From sequence record PX974237.1: a stretch of DNA of 44,742 bases; one strand, written 5' to 3'. The position numbers were made by a program, and so were the translations under genes. This document shows, piece by piece, positions 1-29,224 of this stretch. Numbering within the stretch: position 1 is the first letter of the stretch; every line of letters starts with the position of its first letter. The notes under the pieces are model-generated. The model had not been told where the DNA came from. It made no database searches and saw only the letters and a list, made by a program, of their open reading frames with translations. This DNA comes from a phage.

Positions 1-127
1 ATCAAAGTCCCAGCAGTGTTTCATGATTAGGCGATCGAAAAGTCCACCGTTGTGCCACACCATCTTGATGCGGCTGTTGGGCTTAACAAGGCGGCGCAGT
101 GCGCGGTGTAAATCCCCCGGCATGTCG
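1..127. repeat. Terminal overlap: bases 1-127 are identical to 44616-44742 (circular assembly or terminal redundancy)
   Basis: Direct comparison of the first and last 127 bases of the window; exact match. Confidence 0.9.
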
Positions 128-1059: not shown

Positions 1060-1248
1060 ATAAAATTTCGCAATACGGACTATGTTCTCGAAATCATTCA
1101 TATCAACGGGTTCGAATTCATCCTCCACATGGTTGTATCGCACCATCGTGCCGTTCAGGAACGTAAACGATTCCGAATGGATATAACCGCCCCAGCGCCA
1201 TATCATCACAAAATCTTTATCTGTGGGCATTTCATTTACTTGAATCAT
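1045..1248 (-). CDS. Hypothetical protein (67 aa)
   Basis: ORF in operon context, stop-start overlap with upstream gene. Confidence 0.4.
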   Translation of the reverse strand: MIQVNEMPTDKDFVMIWRWGGYIHSESFTFLNGTMVRYNHVEDEFEPVDMNDFENIVRIAKFYLTPE

Positions 1249-2501
1249 TCTAAATCCTCCTCTGTTACCCTATTCCACTCAGGACGTTTGTCGTCTGCCG
1301 TTGCGACACATGGTGCGCCTGGATTACGGGTAATGAAGTCTTTCAGTTCTTCTTCCGGTATGACTTTAACAGCTTCGGTAGGTGACATGAGCACTTCTTT
1401 AGTCAGCTTGTCGCCGTAGAGTTCTGTTACTTTCTCCGCGTCTTTCCATGCACGATTACCCGGGCGGCCTTCAACCAACTTGTAACCAGGAACTTTCTTA
1501 CCTGAATGCAACGCGGCCGCCATAGCTTTCTCAACCTTGTCGATGTGCTGGCGCAACAGCGGCAACTTCTCATACTCAGCTACGAGTTGCTCCGGCGTCA
1601 GTTCCAGCACAAAGTCGTCTTCCAGTTCTTCCGCCAGTACAGAATTAACCGTCTTTGTACGCGCAGCGCATTGTTCAGAGAACCGGCACCACTGACAACC
1701 ATCTACCGATGGCTTGAAGTCCGACGCTTTCAGGTTCTTCTTGCCACGGAAATACGCATCAAGCGCTAACAGCGCGCGTTTCTGTGCGAACTTAGCAAAC
1801 AGTTCCAGACCTTCAACTGAGATGTCCCACTCCGATGCACCGCCAGCATACGGCTGGAAGATTACCAGGCGCACTACTGTGATGTTATAACGTCGCTTGA
1901 GTCGACGATAAACACCGAGAGCGTAAAGCATAAGCTGTTTGTTTTCTTTCGCTTCGACACGATGCCGTCCTGTTTTCAGGTCGCCAATAATGAGCATGTG
2001 CTCTTCGGTGTTCGCCAGTTCCTGAATGGCAACAAGGTCGGCGGTTCCGAACGTCTCAACGCCTTCATACCCCGGATGCAATACCTCAGTAAGATTGACA
2101 CGCATTTCCAGCTTGGCGTAAGTCGCTACGTCTATAATCGCTTTGCAGTAGTCGGTGTACTTGCGCACCTGCTCAATCATGTCCGCCGTAATCAGTACCG
2201 CGCCTTTCATCGGGCTGATTAGCGCCTTAATCTGACCTTTGCCTTCATCCAGTACGTAAGCGCCGACTTCACGCTCCAACGGCAACGCAGTGCCGCGTAT
2301 ATAGGCGTTGAGATGGACCTCAGCTATGGTGTGCATGGCGGTCCCCGTAACGGCAGCTTTACCTGACGTGTTAGGAATATCTTTTTCACAGGCCAGTGAT
2401 GCACTGCACGTCAGCCACTTCTTAGCACCTGACGGCGACAATAAGGCGTGCACATCATTATTGCCACCGCGTTCTTTTAGAATCATGCTCTGTTCTCCCA
2501 C
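1245..2501 (-). CDS. PD-(D/E)XK exonuclease, DUF2800-like (Cas4/RecB-like with C-terminal Cys cluster)
   Basis: 418 aa; LSPSGAKKWLTC motif near N-terminus and CQWCRFSEQC cysteine cluster, as in DUF2800 phage exonucleases. Confidence 0.6.
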   Translation of the reverse strand: MGEQSMILKERGGNNDVHALLSPSGAKKWLTCSASLACEKDIPNTSGKAAVTGTAMHTIAEVHLNAYIRGTALPLEREVGAYVLDEGKGQIKALISPMKGAVLITADMIEQVRKYTDYCKAIIDVATYAKLEMRVNLTEVLHPGYEGVETFGTADLVAIQELANTEEHMLIIGDLKTGRHRVEAKENKQLMLYALGVYRRLKRRYNITVVRLVIFQPYAGGASEWDISVEGLELFAKFAQKRALLALDAYFRGKKNLKASDFKPSVDGCQWCRFSEQCAARTKTVNSVLAEELEDDFVLELTPEQLVAEYEKLPLLRQHIDKVEKAMAAALHSGKKVPGYKLVEGRPGNRAWKDAEKVTELYGDKLTKEVLMSPTEAVKVIPEEELKDFITRNPGAPCVATADDKRPEWNRVTEEDLE

Positions 2502-26624: not shown

Positions 26625-26650
26625 AAGGCCCCTTTCGGGGCCTTTTTCTT
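26625..26650. terminator. Bidirectional rho-independent terminator (tail tube + / kinase -)
   Basis: aaggcccc-tttc-ggggcctt followed by TTTTCTT. Confidence 0.7.
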
Positions 26651-27203
26651 ACAAACCTAATTTTAAAGCAATGTCTATAACGTTCGATTTAACGTCACCC
26701 GGTATGATGTAGGTGTCGTAATCTTTTACACCACCAACATCGTACAGATAGCCACGGCTATCGCCGATGAACGTATAGCCGTCACGATGGAGGCGGACGA
26801 TTCGCACGTCATGCCCCGCGGCGACGATAGGGGCAACTTCACTGGCGAATCCACCGTCGGACACTACAAAAACTTCGTCGCCGTCAGGCAAGTTTTCAGC
26901 AAGATACTTACCGAAATAATCATCGCCGAATACCGGTTTAATGAATTGCTCAGAAATGGCAATCATTAACCGGCGGCGGGACAACCCATTAAGAAAACCC
27001 TCGGGTTTTTCTTTCCGCGCCCGGTCGTCGTAGCCGTCGAGAAATTCGTGGTAAGCATCCTGGCCTAACGCTGCCAAAGCAATATTGAACATTGGATTCT
27101 TGAAACTGGTAGTTCCTTTCGCAAAGCCCATTTCTACCAGCGCCATAGCAAGCGTGTCTTTCCCGCAACCCGCAGGGCCATTAAGAATAATTACCTTAGC
27201 CAT
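26649..27203 (-). CDS. P-loop nucleotide kinase (dNMP-kinase-like; possibly polynucleotide 5'-kinase)
   Basis: 184 aa; Walker A GPAGCGKDT and RRLM segment as recalled from T4 gp1 dNMP kinase. Confidence 0.6.
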   Translation of the reverse strand: MAKVIILNGPAGCGKDTLAMALVEMGFAKGTTSFKNPMFNIALAALGQDAYHEFLDGYDDRARKEKPEGFLNGLSRRRLMIAISEQFIKPVFGDDYFGKYLAENLPDGDEVFVVSDGGFASEVAPIVAAGHDVRIVRLHRDGYTFIGDSRGYLYDVGGVKDYDTYIIPGDVKSNVIDIALKLGL

Positions 27204-27691
27204 TATTTATCGCTCCCGTGTGGTTTTAAGTGTGTAGAGTTCCCGTTACAGTCGTATTCGGTAACTGCGTGTACGGTTATGCCGAGGTCACGGAAATGCT
27301 TTATTACCGCTGGAGAGTCGTCGAACGCACACAAGATTCTTTCCAGTCCGAAAGCACGCAACACCTCTTCTTTAATTACGATGTCTTTTCTGTTGTCGTG
27401 TTTGCTGCGCATGATTAGCGTGTCAAACCTAACGTTATTCTCTCGTAACCATTCGCGAGTCTCCTCCTCAGCGTCATCACTTCGCCCGGTAAGGATAATT
27501 ATAGTAAGTCCGGAATGCCACAGTACGCTACACAAATGGATATTGTCGTATATCGGAGCGTCATCTTTGCAGGCCATGTTAAATGGCTTCCACGCCCACG
27601 TTTCTCCGTAGTTATCTTTTGGTAACAGGTGTAAGCGATGGGTACCGTCAGCCAATGTCCCGTCTAAATCGAAAATTACAATATCTTTCAT
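27203..27691 (-). CDS. HAD-superfamily phosphatase resembling the 3'-phosphatase domain of polynucleotide kinase-phosphatase
   Basis: 162 aa; VIFDLDGTLA motif I, IILTGR motif II, DNRKDIVIKEEV...FDDSPAV motif III/IV, closely resembling my recollection of the T4 PseT phosphatase domain. Confidence 0.65.
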   Translation of the reverse strand: MKDIVIFDLDGTLADGTHRLHLLPKDNYGETWAWKPFNMACKDDAPIYDNIHLCSVLWHSGLTIIILTGRSDDAEEETREWLRENNVRFDTLIMRSKHDNRKDIVIKEEVLRAFGLERILCAFDDSPAVIKHFRDLGITVHAVTEYDCNGNSTHLKPHGSDK

Positions 27692-28818
27692 CCCAGCATC
27701 TCCGGTGAAATAGTTAAACGTGCGACCTCGCCATATTCGGCGCTATAAGTAATTACATTTGCACTGCGGCCCGACATCCATCCGCCGCGAGAGGCGTAGG
27801 CGTCTTTAGCCGCTAAGGTGCGGTGTTGCTCAACAATCATGTTACGGCTTTCTACAATCTTCTGGTGGTGCAGATGGCCTACGTGGGCGTAGCTGTAAAC
27901 ACTCTCGCCGAACGCTTTACGGAACTTGGCAATCATAACCGGTTCGATAGCGTCGAATCGTGCTTTATGCCCGTGATGGAAGAACAGCGTCGTTTTGCCG
28001 TGTTGCACCATCTTGTAAACATCCGGCGACGTATCAACAATCACTCGGCTGTCGTTTGAGTATAAAACCGTGAACATTTCAGCAAGCCATACGGAGCCAA
28101 CAGGGTCGTGGTTACCTTGAACGATTAAAAGTTTTACTGTGTGATGCTTAACCAGCGCCATATCAACAACACGGCGGACCATACGAATCATGTAACGTAC
28201 CAGTTTCTGATAGCGAGTATCCGCATCTAATACATGGCGCGACTCGGGGGTAACGGCATCAAGACTATCGAAGTGTGCGAAGTCCCCAAGCAGGTTAATA
28301 ACTCCTGTTCCTGCATCCGGTGCTTTCTGAAACGCCGCGTCGAACCACCGAGAGAACAGGTCTTCTGCAATCTTCATGTCCCAGTCGTCGCCGCTCTCAT
28401 CGGCCCATGCCAGCATACCGAGATGGAAATCAGATACAGTGTAAAGATTGAGTAGCTTGTCGTCACGTTTGGCGCGCGCCGCTTTAACAGGCGCAACGGG
28501 CGTAATCTCTGACTTCATGCCCTCTATTACGGCTTTCATCAATTCAACCTGACGTTCGGCGTCGGTATCAGTCTTAACCCATTGCAACTTAGTGTTGCCG
28601 AACTCGTCCACAAGTGACGACGTTCCTTTAATCTTGTAACCGTCTGGTACAAGGTGACTAACGTCGCGCCCGTGGCCTACGCCTTTCTTAGCCAGCTTCG
28701 CTTTACGGATACGAATAACGCGGTCTGAGATGCCGTATTTACGGGCGATATCTACATTCTTCATACCGGCGTTCAATTCTTCCTGCAACTGTTCGTCGGT
28801 TATTTTCTTCCGGGCCAT
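27688..28818 (-). CDS. Calcineurin-like metallophosphoesterase with N-terminal HTH domain
   Basis: 376 aa; phosphoesterase motifs DFH, GDFAHFD, GNHD, HHGH, GHLHH; N-terminal 50 aa KNVDIARKYGISDRVIRIRKAK looks like an HTH. Confidence 0.7.
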   Translation of the reverse strand: MARKKITDEQLQEELNAGMKNVDIARKYGISDRVIRIRKAKLAKKGVGHGRDVSHLVPDGYKIKGTSSLVDEFGNTKLQWVKTDTDAERQVELMKAVIEGMKSEITPVAPVKAARAKRDDKLLNLYTVSDFHLGMLAWADESGDDWDMKIAEDLFSRWFDAAFQKAPDAGTGVINLLGDFAHFDSLDAVTPESRHVLDADTRYQKLVRYMIRMVRRVVDMALVKHHTVKLLIVQGNHDPVGSVWLAEMFTVLYSNDSRVIVDTSPDVYKMVQHGKTTLFFHHGHKARFDAIEPVMIAKFRKAFGESVYSYAHVGHLHHQKIVESRNMIVEQHRTLAAKDAYASRGGWMSGRSANVITYSAEYGEVARLTISPEMLG

Positions 28819-28855
28819 GTTTATTCCTCGTGCTTAGGATTTGTCCTATACTAGC

Positions 28856-29047
28856 TCACTTCTCTTTGACATTCGAGTTGCAAGCCCAGATTAAAATAAA
28901 TACCCACGGCAGCAGAACCCATCCAAGAAACAGATTAGCCATGAATATCGCTAATTTCGCTTTATGGTCGCGCATATGCGCCACGAGAAATGGAATAAAA
29001 TAAACTAAAACGATAATGATTAAGAAGAACATAGTAATACCCGTCAT
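28856..29047 (-). CDS. Superinfection-immunity-like small membrane protein (Imm_superinfect-like)
   Basis: Start at internal ATG 29047 with AGGAG RBS; 63 aa with two TM helices; YFIPFLVAHMRDHKAKLAIFMANLFLGWVLLPWVFILIWA matches the Imm_superinfect pattern. Confidence 0.55.
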   Translation of the reverse strand: MTGITMFFLIIIVLVYFIPFLVAHMRDHKAKLAIFMANLFLGWVLLPWVFILIWACNSNVKEK

Positions 29048-29088: not shown

Positions 29089-29117
29089 ATAGTACACTAT
29101 TATATTGGGGTGTGCAA
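29089..29117 (-). promoter_or_regulatory. Early-family promoter (TTGCAC-17-TACTAT) driving the imm / phosphoesterase / phosphatase / kinase cassette
   Basis: Minus-strand -35 at 29117-29112, -10 at 29094-29089; spacer accccaatataatagtg nearly identical to 7504-7532 and 19051-19079. Confidence 0.55.
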
Positions 29118-29224
29118 GTAATGTGATAGAATAATTTTGCGCCTAGTGTCGCACACGAAAAGCGGGTGGTTCCCGTCTGGCGCATTAACCTTAACCCGTA
29201 ACCTCTTAACCAAAGGATTAAAGA

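Follow-up and report, generated by a model that had tools for sequence, protein, structure and literature searches.

Does a phage gene that joins an N-terminal helix-turn-helix (HTH) domain to a calcineurin-like metallophosphoesterase (MPE) represent an unusual fusion with a new activity, and what would such an enzyme do during infection? The question arises from a locus of the window, the 44,742-nucleotide stretch of phage DNA analysed here (sequence record PX974237.1), whose source is a Kagunavirus coliphage. An open reading frame was found on the minus strand at exactly the coordinates given by the initial annotation (27688..28818; Table 1). It begins with ATG, has a GAGGA ribosome-binding site 6 nt upstream of the start and encodes a product of 376 aa, and its stop codon overlaps the start of the downstream HAD gene (ATGA). 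This product is indeed the largest of the cassette, the others having 184, 162 and 63 aa, and is 100% identical to that of MZ234010 22664BS2_038 (GenBank, Kagunavirus).

Table 1. Coordinates of the HTH-MPE gene, its parts and its neighbours in the window.
Feature	Coordinates	Strand	Basis and remarks
Whole HTH-MPE gene	27688..28818	-	ORF list; PHROG 704 member
Residues 1-50, basic three-helix HTH, sigma-70 region 4 / LuxR-GerE / HTH_23-28 kind	28669..28818	-	AlphaFold2 (AF2), profiles, Pfam
Residues 51-118, linker, beta-hairpin, helix, linker	28465..28668	-	AF2 secondary structure
Residues 119-376 and stop, binuclear MPE core	27688..28464	-	Structurally closest to nucleases PolD-DP1, Mre11, SbcD
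Motif I, D130-F-H132 (DxH)	28423..28431	-	D130, H132 invariant in 138 sequences
Motif II, G178-D-F-A-H182-F-D184 (GDxxH)	28267..28287	-	G178, D179 invariant; H182, D184 at least 90% conserved
Motif III, G235-N-H-D238 (GNHD)	28105..28116	-	N236, H237 invariant
Motif IV, H281-H-G-H284	27967..27978	-	H282 invariant
Motif V, G314-H-L-H317 (GHxH)	27868..27879	-	G314, H317 invariant; H315 at least 90% conserved
HAD phosphatase, 162 aa, start overlaps HTH-MPE end	27203..27691	-	Pfam HAD_PNKP; PHROG 415
P-loop kinase, 184 aa, T4 gp1 dNMP-kinase type, third gene	26649..27203	-	PHROG 139, E 9.7e-45
Imm-like superinfection immunity membrane protein, 63 aa, upstream, same unit	28856..29047	-	Pfam Imm_superinfect, E 3.6e-13
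Sigma-70-like promoter candidate ATCACA-17-TATAAT, upstream of cassette	29099..29127	-	10/12 consensus matches
Bidirectional stem-loop terminator	26625..26644	.	8-bp stem, 6 GC pairs, T-runs on both strands

The AlphaFold2 model, for which the input was a family alignment of 138 sequences with 33-49% identity to the query, has a mean pLDDT of 93.5 and divides the protein into a basic three-helix HTH (residues 8-44), a conserved beta-hairpin followed by a helix (61-104) and the MPE core (119-376). The presence of an HTH within the first ~50 residues, as previously proposed, is borne out by the three predicted helices (8-16, 21-28 and 32-44), by profile matches at the family level and by the conservation of the columns. 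The peptide KNVDIARKYGISDRVIRIRKAK, quoted when the domain was first recognised, corresponds to helix 2, the turn and the recognition helix. A disordered segment or a generic linker had been named as the alternatives; the block is ordered (pLDDT 85-96), and in the relatives the N-terminus is a conserved HTH whose columns are nearly gap-free over 137 representatives. Detection is clear for the family and weak for this protein alone: its Pfam GerE match (E 0.025 with the full length, 0.0012 with the N-terminus) scores 18.8 bits, below the cutoff of 23.5 bits, while a profile built from 46 N-termini matches GerE 1FSE (E 5e-4), sigma-H region 4 and NarL in the PDB, and single family members match Sigma70_r4_2 (1.7e-10), GerE (4.5e-9), HTH_23 and HTH_28 in Pfam. 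With the whole protein as query, the PDB sequence search gave only a marginal match to the FixJ HTH and the NCBIfam search nothing useful. The domain, with its three helices and recognition helix, is thus detected by family profiles as an HTH of the sigma-70 region 4 / LuxR-GerE type, and residues 1-50 are strongly basic (pI 10.3, net charge +6.6). The most reasonable prediction from sequence is that the HTH would target the enzyme to nucleic acid.

Between the two domains, the model places a low-confidence linker (residues 45-60), a family-specific beta-hairpin (61-85), the connector helix (87-104) and a second linker. The hairpin carries the motif KGxSxLxDxxGxxxLQWVKT, in which W80 is invariant and G74 nearly invariant in the family alignment. 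This motif is duplicated in the relatives P0125, P0132, P0147, P0151 and P0161.

The C-terminal part has the beta-sandwich MPE fold and contains all five calcineurin-like motifs that provide the ligands of the two-metal centre, in agreement with the full motif set claimed earlier, and the key residues are invariant in the 138 sequences. The Pfam gathering thresholds of PF00149 and PF12850 are not reached (Metallophos_2, 22 bits for a cutoff of 27; Metallophos, 17.2 for 21.5) because the family has diverged too far to be captured by the Pfam models. Since the metal-ligand and catalytic residues are invariant, the enzyme activity must be under selection. In Mre11 of P. furiosus, the sites are D8/H10, D49/H52, N84/H85, H173 and H206/H208; the combination of GDxxH and GNHD is the Mre11 pattern, and motif II of Mre11 reads GDLFH. 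An active-site pattern of this type is present here (GDFAH182 in motif II and GNHD in motif III).

These motifs also bear on the frame in which the gene had first been placed, that of a lambda-type Ser/Thr protein phosphatase (PPP family) with an acquired HTH. Lambda NinI has the same superfamily fold and is also phage-encoded, and the weak Pfam Metallophos and Metallophos_2 matches are consistent with the shared superfamily, but its motif signatures are different and its structural score is much lower than those of the nucleases. Indeed, the lambda-type signatures GDxVDRG and GNHE are absent from our protein, which has GDFAHFD and GNHD instead, the hhalign probability of the family against NinI is 0.6%, and both NinI and SbcD are absent from the match lists of a reciprocal HMM comparison of ~2,280 sequences. 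The lambda-type phosphatases are therefore an inappropriate reference point for a protein with Mre11-like motifs II and III, and we consider this explanation highly improbable.

The architecture itself is not exceptional. The protein matches PHROG 704 ("DNA repair exonuclease") from end to end (residues 4-375 to profile positions 2-389/390, E 1.2e-162), relatives occur in 2,038 phage records, 1,960 of which cover at least 80% of the query, and 4,554 clusters (50% identity) match it. The length of 355-440 aa seen in 137 of the 150 best clusters implies that the N-terminal extension is kept. Members are already named "winged helix-turn-helix domain-containing protein" or "metallophosphoesterase" at NCBI; other usual annotations are "calcineurin-like phosphoesterase" and "wHTH domain protein". 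The fusion described as unusual does combine an HTH with an intact MPE, but proteins of a very large and already catalogued phage family normally have this combination, which makes the gene an ordinary one. Family membership and fold can be regarded as practically certain. We found no substantive difference between PHROG 704 and the protein of the window, and the identical Kagunavirus protein had already been deposited.

The family is distributed among Drexlerviridae, Guernseyvirinae (in which the gene position is the same as here), Dhillonvirus, Webervirus and phages of Vibrio, Rhodobacter and Campylobacter, and a genome scan with a 10-sequence alignment also located its genes in integrated proteobacterial prophages with integrases. 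Under the name "DNA repair exonuclease", the gene is persistent in 508 of 522 Drexlerviridae (PMC13164509, 2026). This PHROG name is an annotation transferred by similarity, and our literature search found no published biochemical or genetic test of any PHROG 704 member. Searches on the Kagunavirus phosphoesterase and on host DNA degradation by T1 gave nothing usable, and the gene is unmentioned in a retron-trigger paper (PMC12548924). A CRISPRi-ART screen of phage PTXU04, considered as a source of fitness data, was set aside as this phage (92 CDS, with a polyvalent protein of 2,198 aa) was judged unrelated. As a discovery the gene has little weight, its architecture being already present in PHROGs, in NCBI names and in the recent Drexlerviridae literature.

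What the enzyme might do is suggested by the structural comparisons, in which the top neighbours of the MPE core are nucleases, namely the DP1 proofreading exonuclease, Mre11 and SbcD. We predict that the protein is probably a DNA phosphodiesterase. The initial annotation had ranked it as the best candidate for a new activity, which appears overstated since this predicted activity is of a known kind. The resemblance is one of the core: neither a capping domain nor an OB domain of the DP1 type is evident in the HTH-MPE protein, Mre11, SbcD and DP1 lack the N-terminal HTH and hairpin, which are specific to the phage family, and the hhalign probability of the family against E. coli SbcD is not significant (2.8%). 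Another phage MPE, Gp48 of mycobacteriophage A10ZJ24 (Cluster A), is early-expressed, has phosphodiesterase activity and damages host genomic DNA (PMC12287305). Gp48 differs in that its motif I begins at D10, and it is therefore devoid of the N-terminal HTH extension.

A nuclease of this kind could serve the DNA of the phage itself, acting on ends, hairpins or flaps in recombination-dependent replication or concatemer maturation as Mre11/SbcD would, or it could accompany the replication machinery as a 3'-5' exonuclease of the DP1 kind. The same structural neighbours fit such a role too; the gene is a persistent core gene of the Drexlerviridae, it ends or adjoins replication modules (helicase, VRR-NUC, Dam, SSB, DnaB), and its occurrence in temperate prophages suits phage DNA metabolism better than host destruction. 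We nevertheless consider a role on the phage's own DNA rather unlikely, as no Rad50/SbcC partner was found either in a fully annotated Kagunavirus relative or among the genes that recur around the HTH-MPE gene in 47 loci, the repeated presence of a dNMP kinase beside it suggests mononucleotide products, and in Kagunavirus it stands apart from the replication module and shares a separate, reverse-oriented unit with a superinfection-immunity gene. To our knowledge, Drexlerviridae encode no DNA polymerase and yet they have the gene, so that a dedicated proofreading-subunit role is unlikely.

The HAD neighbour (Pfam PF25109, HAD_PNKP, 74.6 bits) belongs to PHROG 415 (E 1.5e-64), which also includes the dNMP 5'-phosphatase Dmp of phage T5 (E 3.6e-57). 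Compared pairwise, the HAD neighbour and T5 Dmp reach an E of only 5e-4, and a Pfam search of Dmp gave no match; by Pfam, this neighbour resembles polynucleotide 3'-phosphatase (HAD_PNKP) more than Dmp. The third gene encodes a kinase whose family profile (A4) matches the T4 dNMP kinase 1DEK (E 1.9e-19). No other neighbour of the HTH-MPE gene is as widely conserved as the dNMP kinase. Of 47 diverse loci, 14 have a homologue of the kinase downstream of the MPE gene (13 of them on the same strand), and the MPE-HAD-dNMP kinase trio is common to Kagunavirus and Webervirus (41, 56 and 45% identity, respectively). Further neighbours in the relatives belong to replication or nucleotide metabolism (SSB, helicase, methylase, ThyX and DUF7768). 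Upstream in the same unit, the Imm-like gene has the length of 192 nt annotated in the relatives when its start is placed at the ATG at 29047, which has an AGGAG site. Promoter-like sites of the region are not above those of shuffled sequences (4 found, 3.8 expected), and the stem-loop terminator separates the cassette from the convergent major tail gene. A split Pnkp-like RNA/DNA end-healing system composed of kinase, HAD and MPE was not retained as the main reading, since the kinase belongs to the T4 gp1 dNMP-kinase type and the phage encodes no ligase.

These neighbours, which are nucleotide enzymes, would also suit a phosphodiesterase or phosphatase of small nucleotides (cyclic or linear signalling oligonucleotides, dNDP/dNTP or Ap4A) that takes part in anti-defence or, together with the HAD protein and the kinase, in pool remodelling. 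There is a precedent in the PUA-Cal-HAD defence, in which calcineurin-like and HAD enzymes act in a cascade from dNTP through dNDP to dNMP (bioRxiv 10.64898/2026.01.15.699771). Such a function appears improbable for the HTH-MPE protein: the conserved basic HTH, predicted to bind DNA, would be without obvious use, nucleases are the top structural neighbours, the gene is core and persistent whereas typical anti-defence genes are patchy, and a PADLOC search of the protein gave no match.

By analogy, the closest studied counterpart of the HTH-MPE protein is A1 of phage T5. This predicted metallophosphatase, which its authors likened structurally to double-strand-break-repair nucleases and polymerase proofreading subunits, is both required and sufficient for the degradation of host DNA; in addition, it interacts with RNA polymerase and has a dampening effect on pre-early transcription (bioRxiv 10.64898/2026.04.02.716235). 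Both proteins have a C-terminal MPE with Mre11/DP1-like structural features, many relatives of A1 bear an N-terminal HTH as here, and in T5 A1 is followed by dmp on the same strand, which is the order of the MPE and HAD genes in the window. Beyond the generic motifs, the A1 family and PHROG 704 share NHD-x3-S-x-WL past motif III and a C-terminal ITY-x3-G strand. In the reciprocal HMM comparison, the two families top each other's lists (best E 1.3e-4 and 7e-3), and hhalign of the MPE regions alone gives a probability of 49% (E 1.7e-4, 214 columns); with the full lengths, only the HTH was aligned (24%). The single T5 A1 sequence gave no significant hhalign result with the family (17.7%), pairwise BLAST against it recovered motif III only, with nothing significant, and the HTH-MPE protein had no match in PHROG 1745, the A1 family. 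A1 also differs by its size (556 aa), by a conserved middle region of ~230 aa missing from the HTH-MPE protein, by being a pre-early gene tied to the two-step DNA injection of T5 and by its assignment to a separate PHROG (1745, versus 704 here). Membership of the A1 family is not supported by these sequence comparisons, which point to an analogy and a remote relationship at the superfamily level only.

The interaction of A1 with RNA polymerase and its effect on pre-early transcription are likewise consistent with another function, that of a transcription regulator whose HTH binds promoter DNA or RNA polymerase and switches gene classes (e.g. late/lysis), with the MPE domain as a sensor or accessory. 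The HTH matches the sigma-70 region 4 and LuxR/GerE families, there is a weak match to PHROG 836 ("late transcriptional activator", E 5.9e-4), endolysins adjoin the gene in ~22 of 47 loci, and in the 508 of 522 Drexlerviridae the gene lies directly upstream of the lysis cassette. The gene is, however, far from the lysis genes in Kagunavirus and Jerseyvirus, and the catalytic residues are invariant in very divergent members, which argues that catalysis is the selected function. Regulation as the role of this protein thus seems very improbable, and it might come on top of catalysis instead of replacing it.

Considering architecture, structural neighbours and gene context together, we propose that the HTH-MPE gene is an ordinary member of PHROG 704 encoding a DNA-tethered nuclease involved in phage or host DNA turnover, a reading whose chances we judge to be evenly balanced. 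The basic sigma-r4/LuxR-like HTH would hold the enzyme on double-stranded DNA, where the two-metal core of the Mre11/SbcD/PolD-DP1 type would cut phosphodiester bonds as a DNase working without Rad50/SbcC. More tentatively, the enzyme might degrade DNA in bulk during early infection, with the host chromosome as the most plausible target, and the resulting 5'-dNMPs might then be processed by the co-transcribed gp1-type dNMP kinase and HAD phosphatase, which would make the system a T1-like and Guernsey-like counterpart of the A1 (metallophosphatase) and Dmp (HAD) pair of T5. This role in host-DNA degradation or salvage is conceivable, though we give it somewhat less than an even chance. The family occurs in temperate prophages, where wholesale destruction of the host chromosome is less expected. 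Early expression is deduced only from the gene orientation and from a promoter-like site that does not exceed chance expectation.

A broader and more doubtful extension would be that HTH proteins with an Mre11/DP1-like MPE form one ancient class of Rad50-free phage DNases, with T5 A1 as one branch and PHROG 704 as a far larger one. The protein of the window would then be the host-chromosome-degrading enzyme of T1-like, Guernsey-like and many other siphophages, feeding the co-inherited gp1-type dNMP kinase and possibly dampening transcription as A1 does.

Few core genes of T1-like and Guernsey-like phages are as widespread as this one, and among these phages are candidates for therapy as well as frequent laboratory contaminants. 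The T5 A1/Dmp parallel, the recurrent dNMP-kinase partner and the structural resemblance to Mre11 and PolD-DP1 offer easy entry points for giving a function to thousands of genes, and such an assignment could help to explain the shutdown and recycling of the host genome by these phages. Elsewhere in the window, a second "exonuclease" (1245..2501, minus strand) was considered as a paralogous MPE and discarded, since it looks PD-(D/E)XK/Cas4-like by eye.

The ORF proposed for the helix-turn-helix metallophosphoesterase (HTH-MPE) protein was confirmed with the limits listed in the table below. Its start codon is ATG, with a GAGGA ribosome-binding site 6 nt upstream, and at its end the stop codon overlaps the start codon of the following gene. 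The gene is the second of four in a minus-strand unit that lies reversed, with the major tail gene on one side and the tail chaperone and tape-measure genes on the other. A bidirectional terminator lies downstream of the unit and a sigma-70-like promoter candidate upstream; such matches do not exceed chance in this region. The DNA of this cassette is 99.6% identical to that of Escherichia phage vB_EcoS-22664BS2 (Kagunavirus, Guernseyvirinae), and the HTH-MPE protein is 100% identical to the "hypothetical protein" 22664BS2_038 of that phage. Two antisense ORFs within the MPE gene have equivalents in 39 of 47 loci carrying a homologue of this gene and cluster with them; they are not genes but shadow ORFs arising from the conserved coding strand.

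Features of the cassette, of the HTH-MPE protein and of additional ORFs
Feature	Position	Strand	Description
Imm-like superinfection-immunity protein	28856-29047	-	Gene 1 of the unit; 63 aa
HTH-MPE protein	27688..28818	-	376 aa
HAD phosphatase	27203-27691	-	162 aa; Pfam HAD_PNKP, 74.6 bits; PHROG 415
P-loop kinase	26649-27203	-	184 aa; T4 gp1-type dNMP kinase (family profile versus 1DEK)
Three N-terminal helices	residues 8-16, 21-28, 32-44		AlphaFold2
Linker, lower confidence	residues 45-60		AlphaFold2
Long beta-hairpin	residues 61-85		AlphaFold2
Helix	residues 87-104		AlphaFold2
Catalytic core	residue 119 onward		AlphaFold2
Conserved hairpin motif	28465-28668	-	Between HTH and catalytic core
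Antisense ORF	27823-28059	+	Within MPE gene
Antisense ORF	28234-28455	+	Within MPE gene
ORF, 270 aa	32389-33201	-	HNH/AP2-type homing endonuclease look
ORF, 167 aa	3321-3824	-	HNH/AP2-type homing endonuclease look

Both halves of the architecture read by the initial annotation, an N-terminal HTH and a metallophosphoesterase with its full motif set, hold according to motifs, AlphaFold2 model and family profiles. The five metallophosphoesterase motifs are DFH130-132, GDFAHFD178-184, GNHD235-238, HHGH281-284 and GHLH314-317. In an alignment with 137 representatives (33-49% identical to the HTH-MPE protein), residues D130, H132, G178, D179, N236, H237, H282, G314 and H317 are invariant, and the AlphaFold2 model computed from this alignment is confident (mean pLDDT 93.5, pTM 0.82). 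The peptide first singled out as an HTH spans helix 2, the recognition helix and the turn between them. Taken alone, the protein gives a weak Pfam GerE match (E 0.025, or 0.0012 with the N-terminus only), below the cutoff in both cases. At the family level, a profile of 46 N-termini matches GerE (1FSE, E 5e-4), sigma-H region 4 and NarL in the PDB, and single members match Sigma70_r4_2 (1.7e-10), GerE (4.5e-9), HTH_23 and HTH_28. Because the HTH helices are modelled, the family gives these matches and the HTH columns are nearly gap-free across it, the N-terminus is neither disordered nor a generic linker, so that the outcome named by the initial annotation as refuting its reading did not occur; residues 1-50 have a pI of 10.3. 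Between the two domains lies a hairpin motif, PxGxxVKGxSTLxDxxGxxxxQWVKT, with an invariant W80, which matches no known domain. It is doubled in tandem in some members (P0125, P0132, P0147, P0151 and P0161) and thus behaves as a small independent module. On this evidence, the protein combines a conserved HTH of DNA-binding type with a predicted nuclease-like two-metal phosphodiesterase whose active-site residues are intact.

This fusion, which had been presented as unusual, is in fact widespread. Indeed, residues 4-375 match positions 2-389 of the 390 of the PHROG 704 profile ("DNA repair exonuclease", E 1.2e-162), and of the 2,038 phage records in which tblastn found a relative, 1,960 have one that covers 80% or more of the query. 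Among these phages are Drexlerviridae (T1-like), Webervirus, Dhillonvirus and Jerseyvirus, along with others that infect Vibrio, Rhodobacter, Campylobacter and Flavobacterium. An exhaustive HMMER search over 1.84 billion representatives, clustered at 50% identity, gave 4,554 matching clusters (1,123 at E 1e-30 or better); lengths of 355-440 aa in 137 of the best 150 indicate that the N-terminal extension is retained. Members are already named "winged helix-turn-helix domain-containing protein" or "metallophosphoesterase" at NCBI. A scan of bacterial genomes added 41 loci, including Brucella/Ochrobactrum, Rhizobiales, Dyella, Luteimonas and Bradyrhizobium. Neighbours were annotated for two of them, an endolysin and an integrase in Brucella and a DnaB-like helicase and a terminase in Dyella, so at least these two loci are prophages. 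The HTH-MPE gene has been catalogued before and is extremely common in phages, and GenBank contains a copy identical to it.

Concerning the kind of metallophosphoesterase, a PPP-type (lambda) protein phosphatase, the reference point of the initial annotation, is very unlikely: GDxVDRG and GNHE are replaced by GDxxH (motif II) and GNHD (motif III), the Mre11 pattern, and hhalign of the family against lambda NinI gave a probability of 0.6%. In structural comparison, the lead of nucleases over the small-molecule enzymes LpxH and MJ0936 (13.7 and 13.6) is modest. Since, in addition, there is no close solved structure (TM about 0.43), the family has no sequence-profile link to SbcD (probability 2.8%) and a Rad50/SbcC partner was found neither in the phage nor among its recurrent gene neighbours, we did not assign the protein to the Mre11/SbcD family and regard it as working like Mre11/SbcD without belonging there.

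The parallel with phage T5 A1, which extends to the HTH, is the most useful lead of this analysis. According to its authors, the predicted metallophosphatase A1 has structural features in common with double-strand-break-repair nucleases and with polymerase proofreading subunits; it is both required and sufficient for degrading the host chromosome, and RNA polymerase is one of its interaction partners (bioRxiv 10.64898/2026.04.02.716235). The structural neighbours named by its authors are those found here for HTH-MPE. A helix-turn-helix is not mentioned in the searched text of that preprint, and the N-terminus of A1 itself is divergent where relatives 44-49% identical to it (P0338-P0389) have a clear HTH (precomputed Pfam HTH_23, HTH_38, HTH_7, CENP-B_N and HTH_31); the A1 family is thus also "HTH plus metallophosphoesterase". 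Apart from the generic motifs, both families have NHD-x3-S-x-WL following motif III, as well as ITY-x3-G in a C-terminal strand. Their catalytic regions align by hhalign with a probability of 49% (E 1.7e-4), and in reciprocal HMM searches of local databases (~2,280 sequences) each family tops the ranking of the other (best E 1.3e-4 and 7e-3), SbcD and NinI being absent from these rankings. The full-length profiles align solely at the HTH (24%), and the HTH-MPE protein does not match the PHROG of A1. These comparisons are weakly suggestive of a specific kinship, and the relation is best described as a remote, superfamily-level parallel of architecture, not as family membership. The order of A1 then dmp on one strand in T5 is mirrored by MPE then HAD in the cassette. 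A further precedent is mycobacteriophage Gp48, a metallophosphoesterase with phosphodiesterase activity that disrupts host genomic DNA but lacks an N-terminal extension (PMC12287305).

The gene lies in a separate unit in which nucleotide-handling enzymes are also encoded. We propose that the HTH would tether the enzyme to duplex DNA and that the catalytic core would cut phosphodiester bonds there, needing no partner of the Rad50 type. Less certainly, the enzyme may attack the host chromosome at an early stage of infection, and the gp1-type kinase might rephosphorylate the resulting dNMPs, in a takeover and salvage scheme like that of T5 A1 and T4. The main rival is a function in replicating, recombining or end-processing the DNA of the phage itself, a reading favoured by the presence of family members in temperate prophages and next to replication genes. 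A small-nucleotide phosphodiesterase and a mainly regulatory protein are less likely readings.

All ORFs of the 47 loci were clustered in a neighbour survey. No neighbour is shared more widely than the P-loop kinase, which lies downstream in 14 loci, in 13 of them on the strand of the HTH-MPE gene. Kagunavirus, Webervirus and alpha-, beta- and gammaproteobacterial loci are among the 14, which span distant phages of proteobacteria and bacterial genomes, the loci in the latter being probably prophage. Its family profile matches the T4 gp1 dNMP kinase (1DEK) at E 1.9e-19, which identifies a dNMP kinase and rules out a polynucleotide kinase. In phages without the SH3 protein, genes for a dNMP kinase and for a polynucleotide kinase are the commonest ones directly after the exonuclease gene (PMC13164509). 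In nine loci (Vibrio phages L004 and L007; bacterial genomes L022, L023, L025, L026, L032, L037 and L048, of which L025 is a prophage), the HTH-MPE gene is followed by one for a DUF7768 protein (PHROG 355). This protein resembles nucleoside 2-deoxyribosyltransferases and is a second recurrent nucleotide-metabolism partner. An endolysin gene adjoins HTH-MPE in about 22 of the 47 loci. The HAD gene is limited, within this sample, to the window and Webervirus. PHROG 415 also contains T5 Dmp (dNMP 5'-phosphatase), to which the direct similarity of the cassette HAD is slight; its substrate may be a DNA 3'-phosphate end (HAD_PNKP being the polynucleotide 3'-phosphatase type) or free dNMP, between which sequence cannot decide. 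Finally, window positions 26649-29047 were compared with a Klebsiella Webervirus (L003, 3992-6226) and a Jerseyvirus (L008). The MPE, HAD and kinase proteins of Kagunavirus and Webervirus are 41, 56 and 45% identical at differing genome positions, reversed within the tail genes in the former and before the lysis genes in the latter. In Jerseyvirus, the same tail-module site contains Imm and MPE, after which genes for an HNH endonuclease and a DNA-binding protein take the place of HAD and kinase. The trio is conserved between Kagunavirus and Webervirus and moves as a module.

Two further minus-strand ORFs have, by eye, the look of HNH/AP2-type homing endonucleases. The longer one, directly after the tape-measure gene, has no counterpart there in the closest relative, vB_EcoS-22664BS2, and may be a recent homing-endonuclease insertion.
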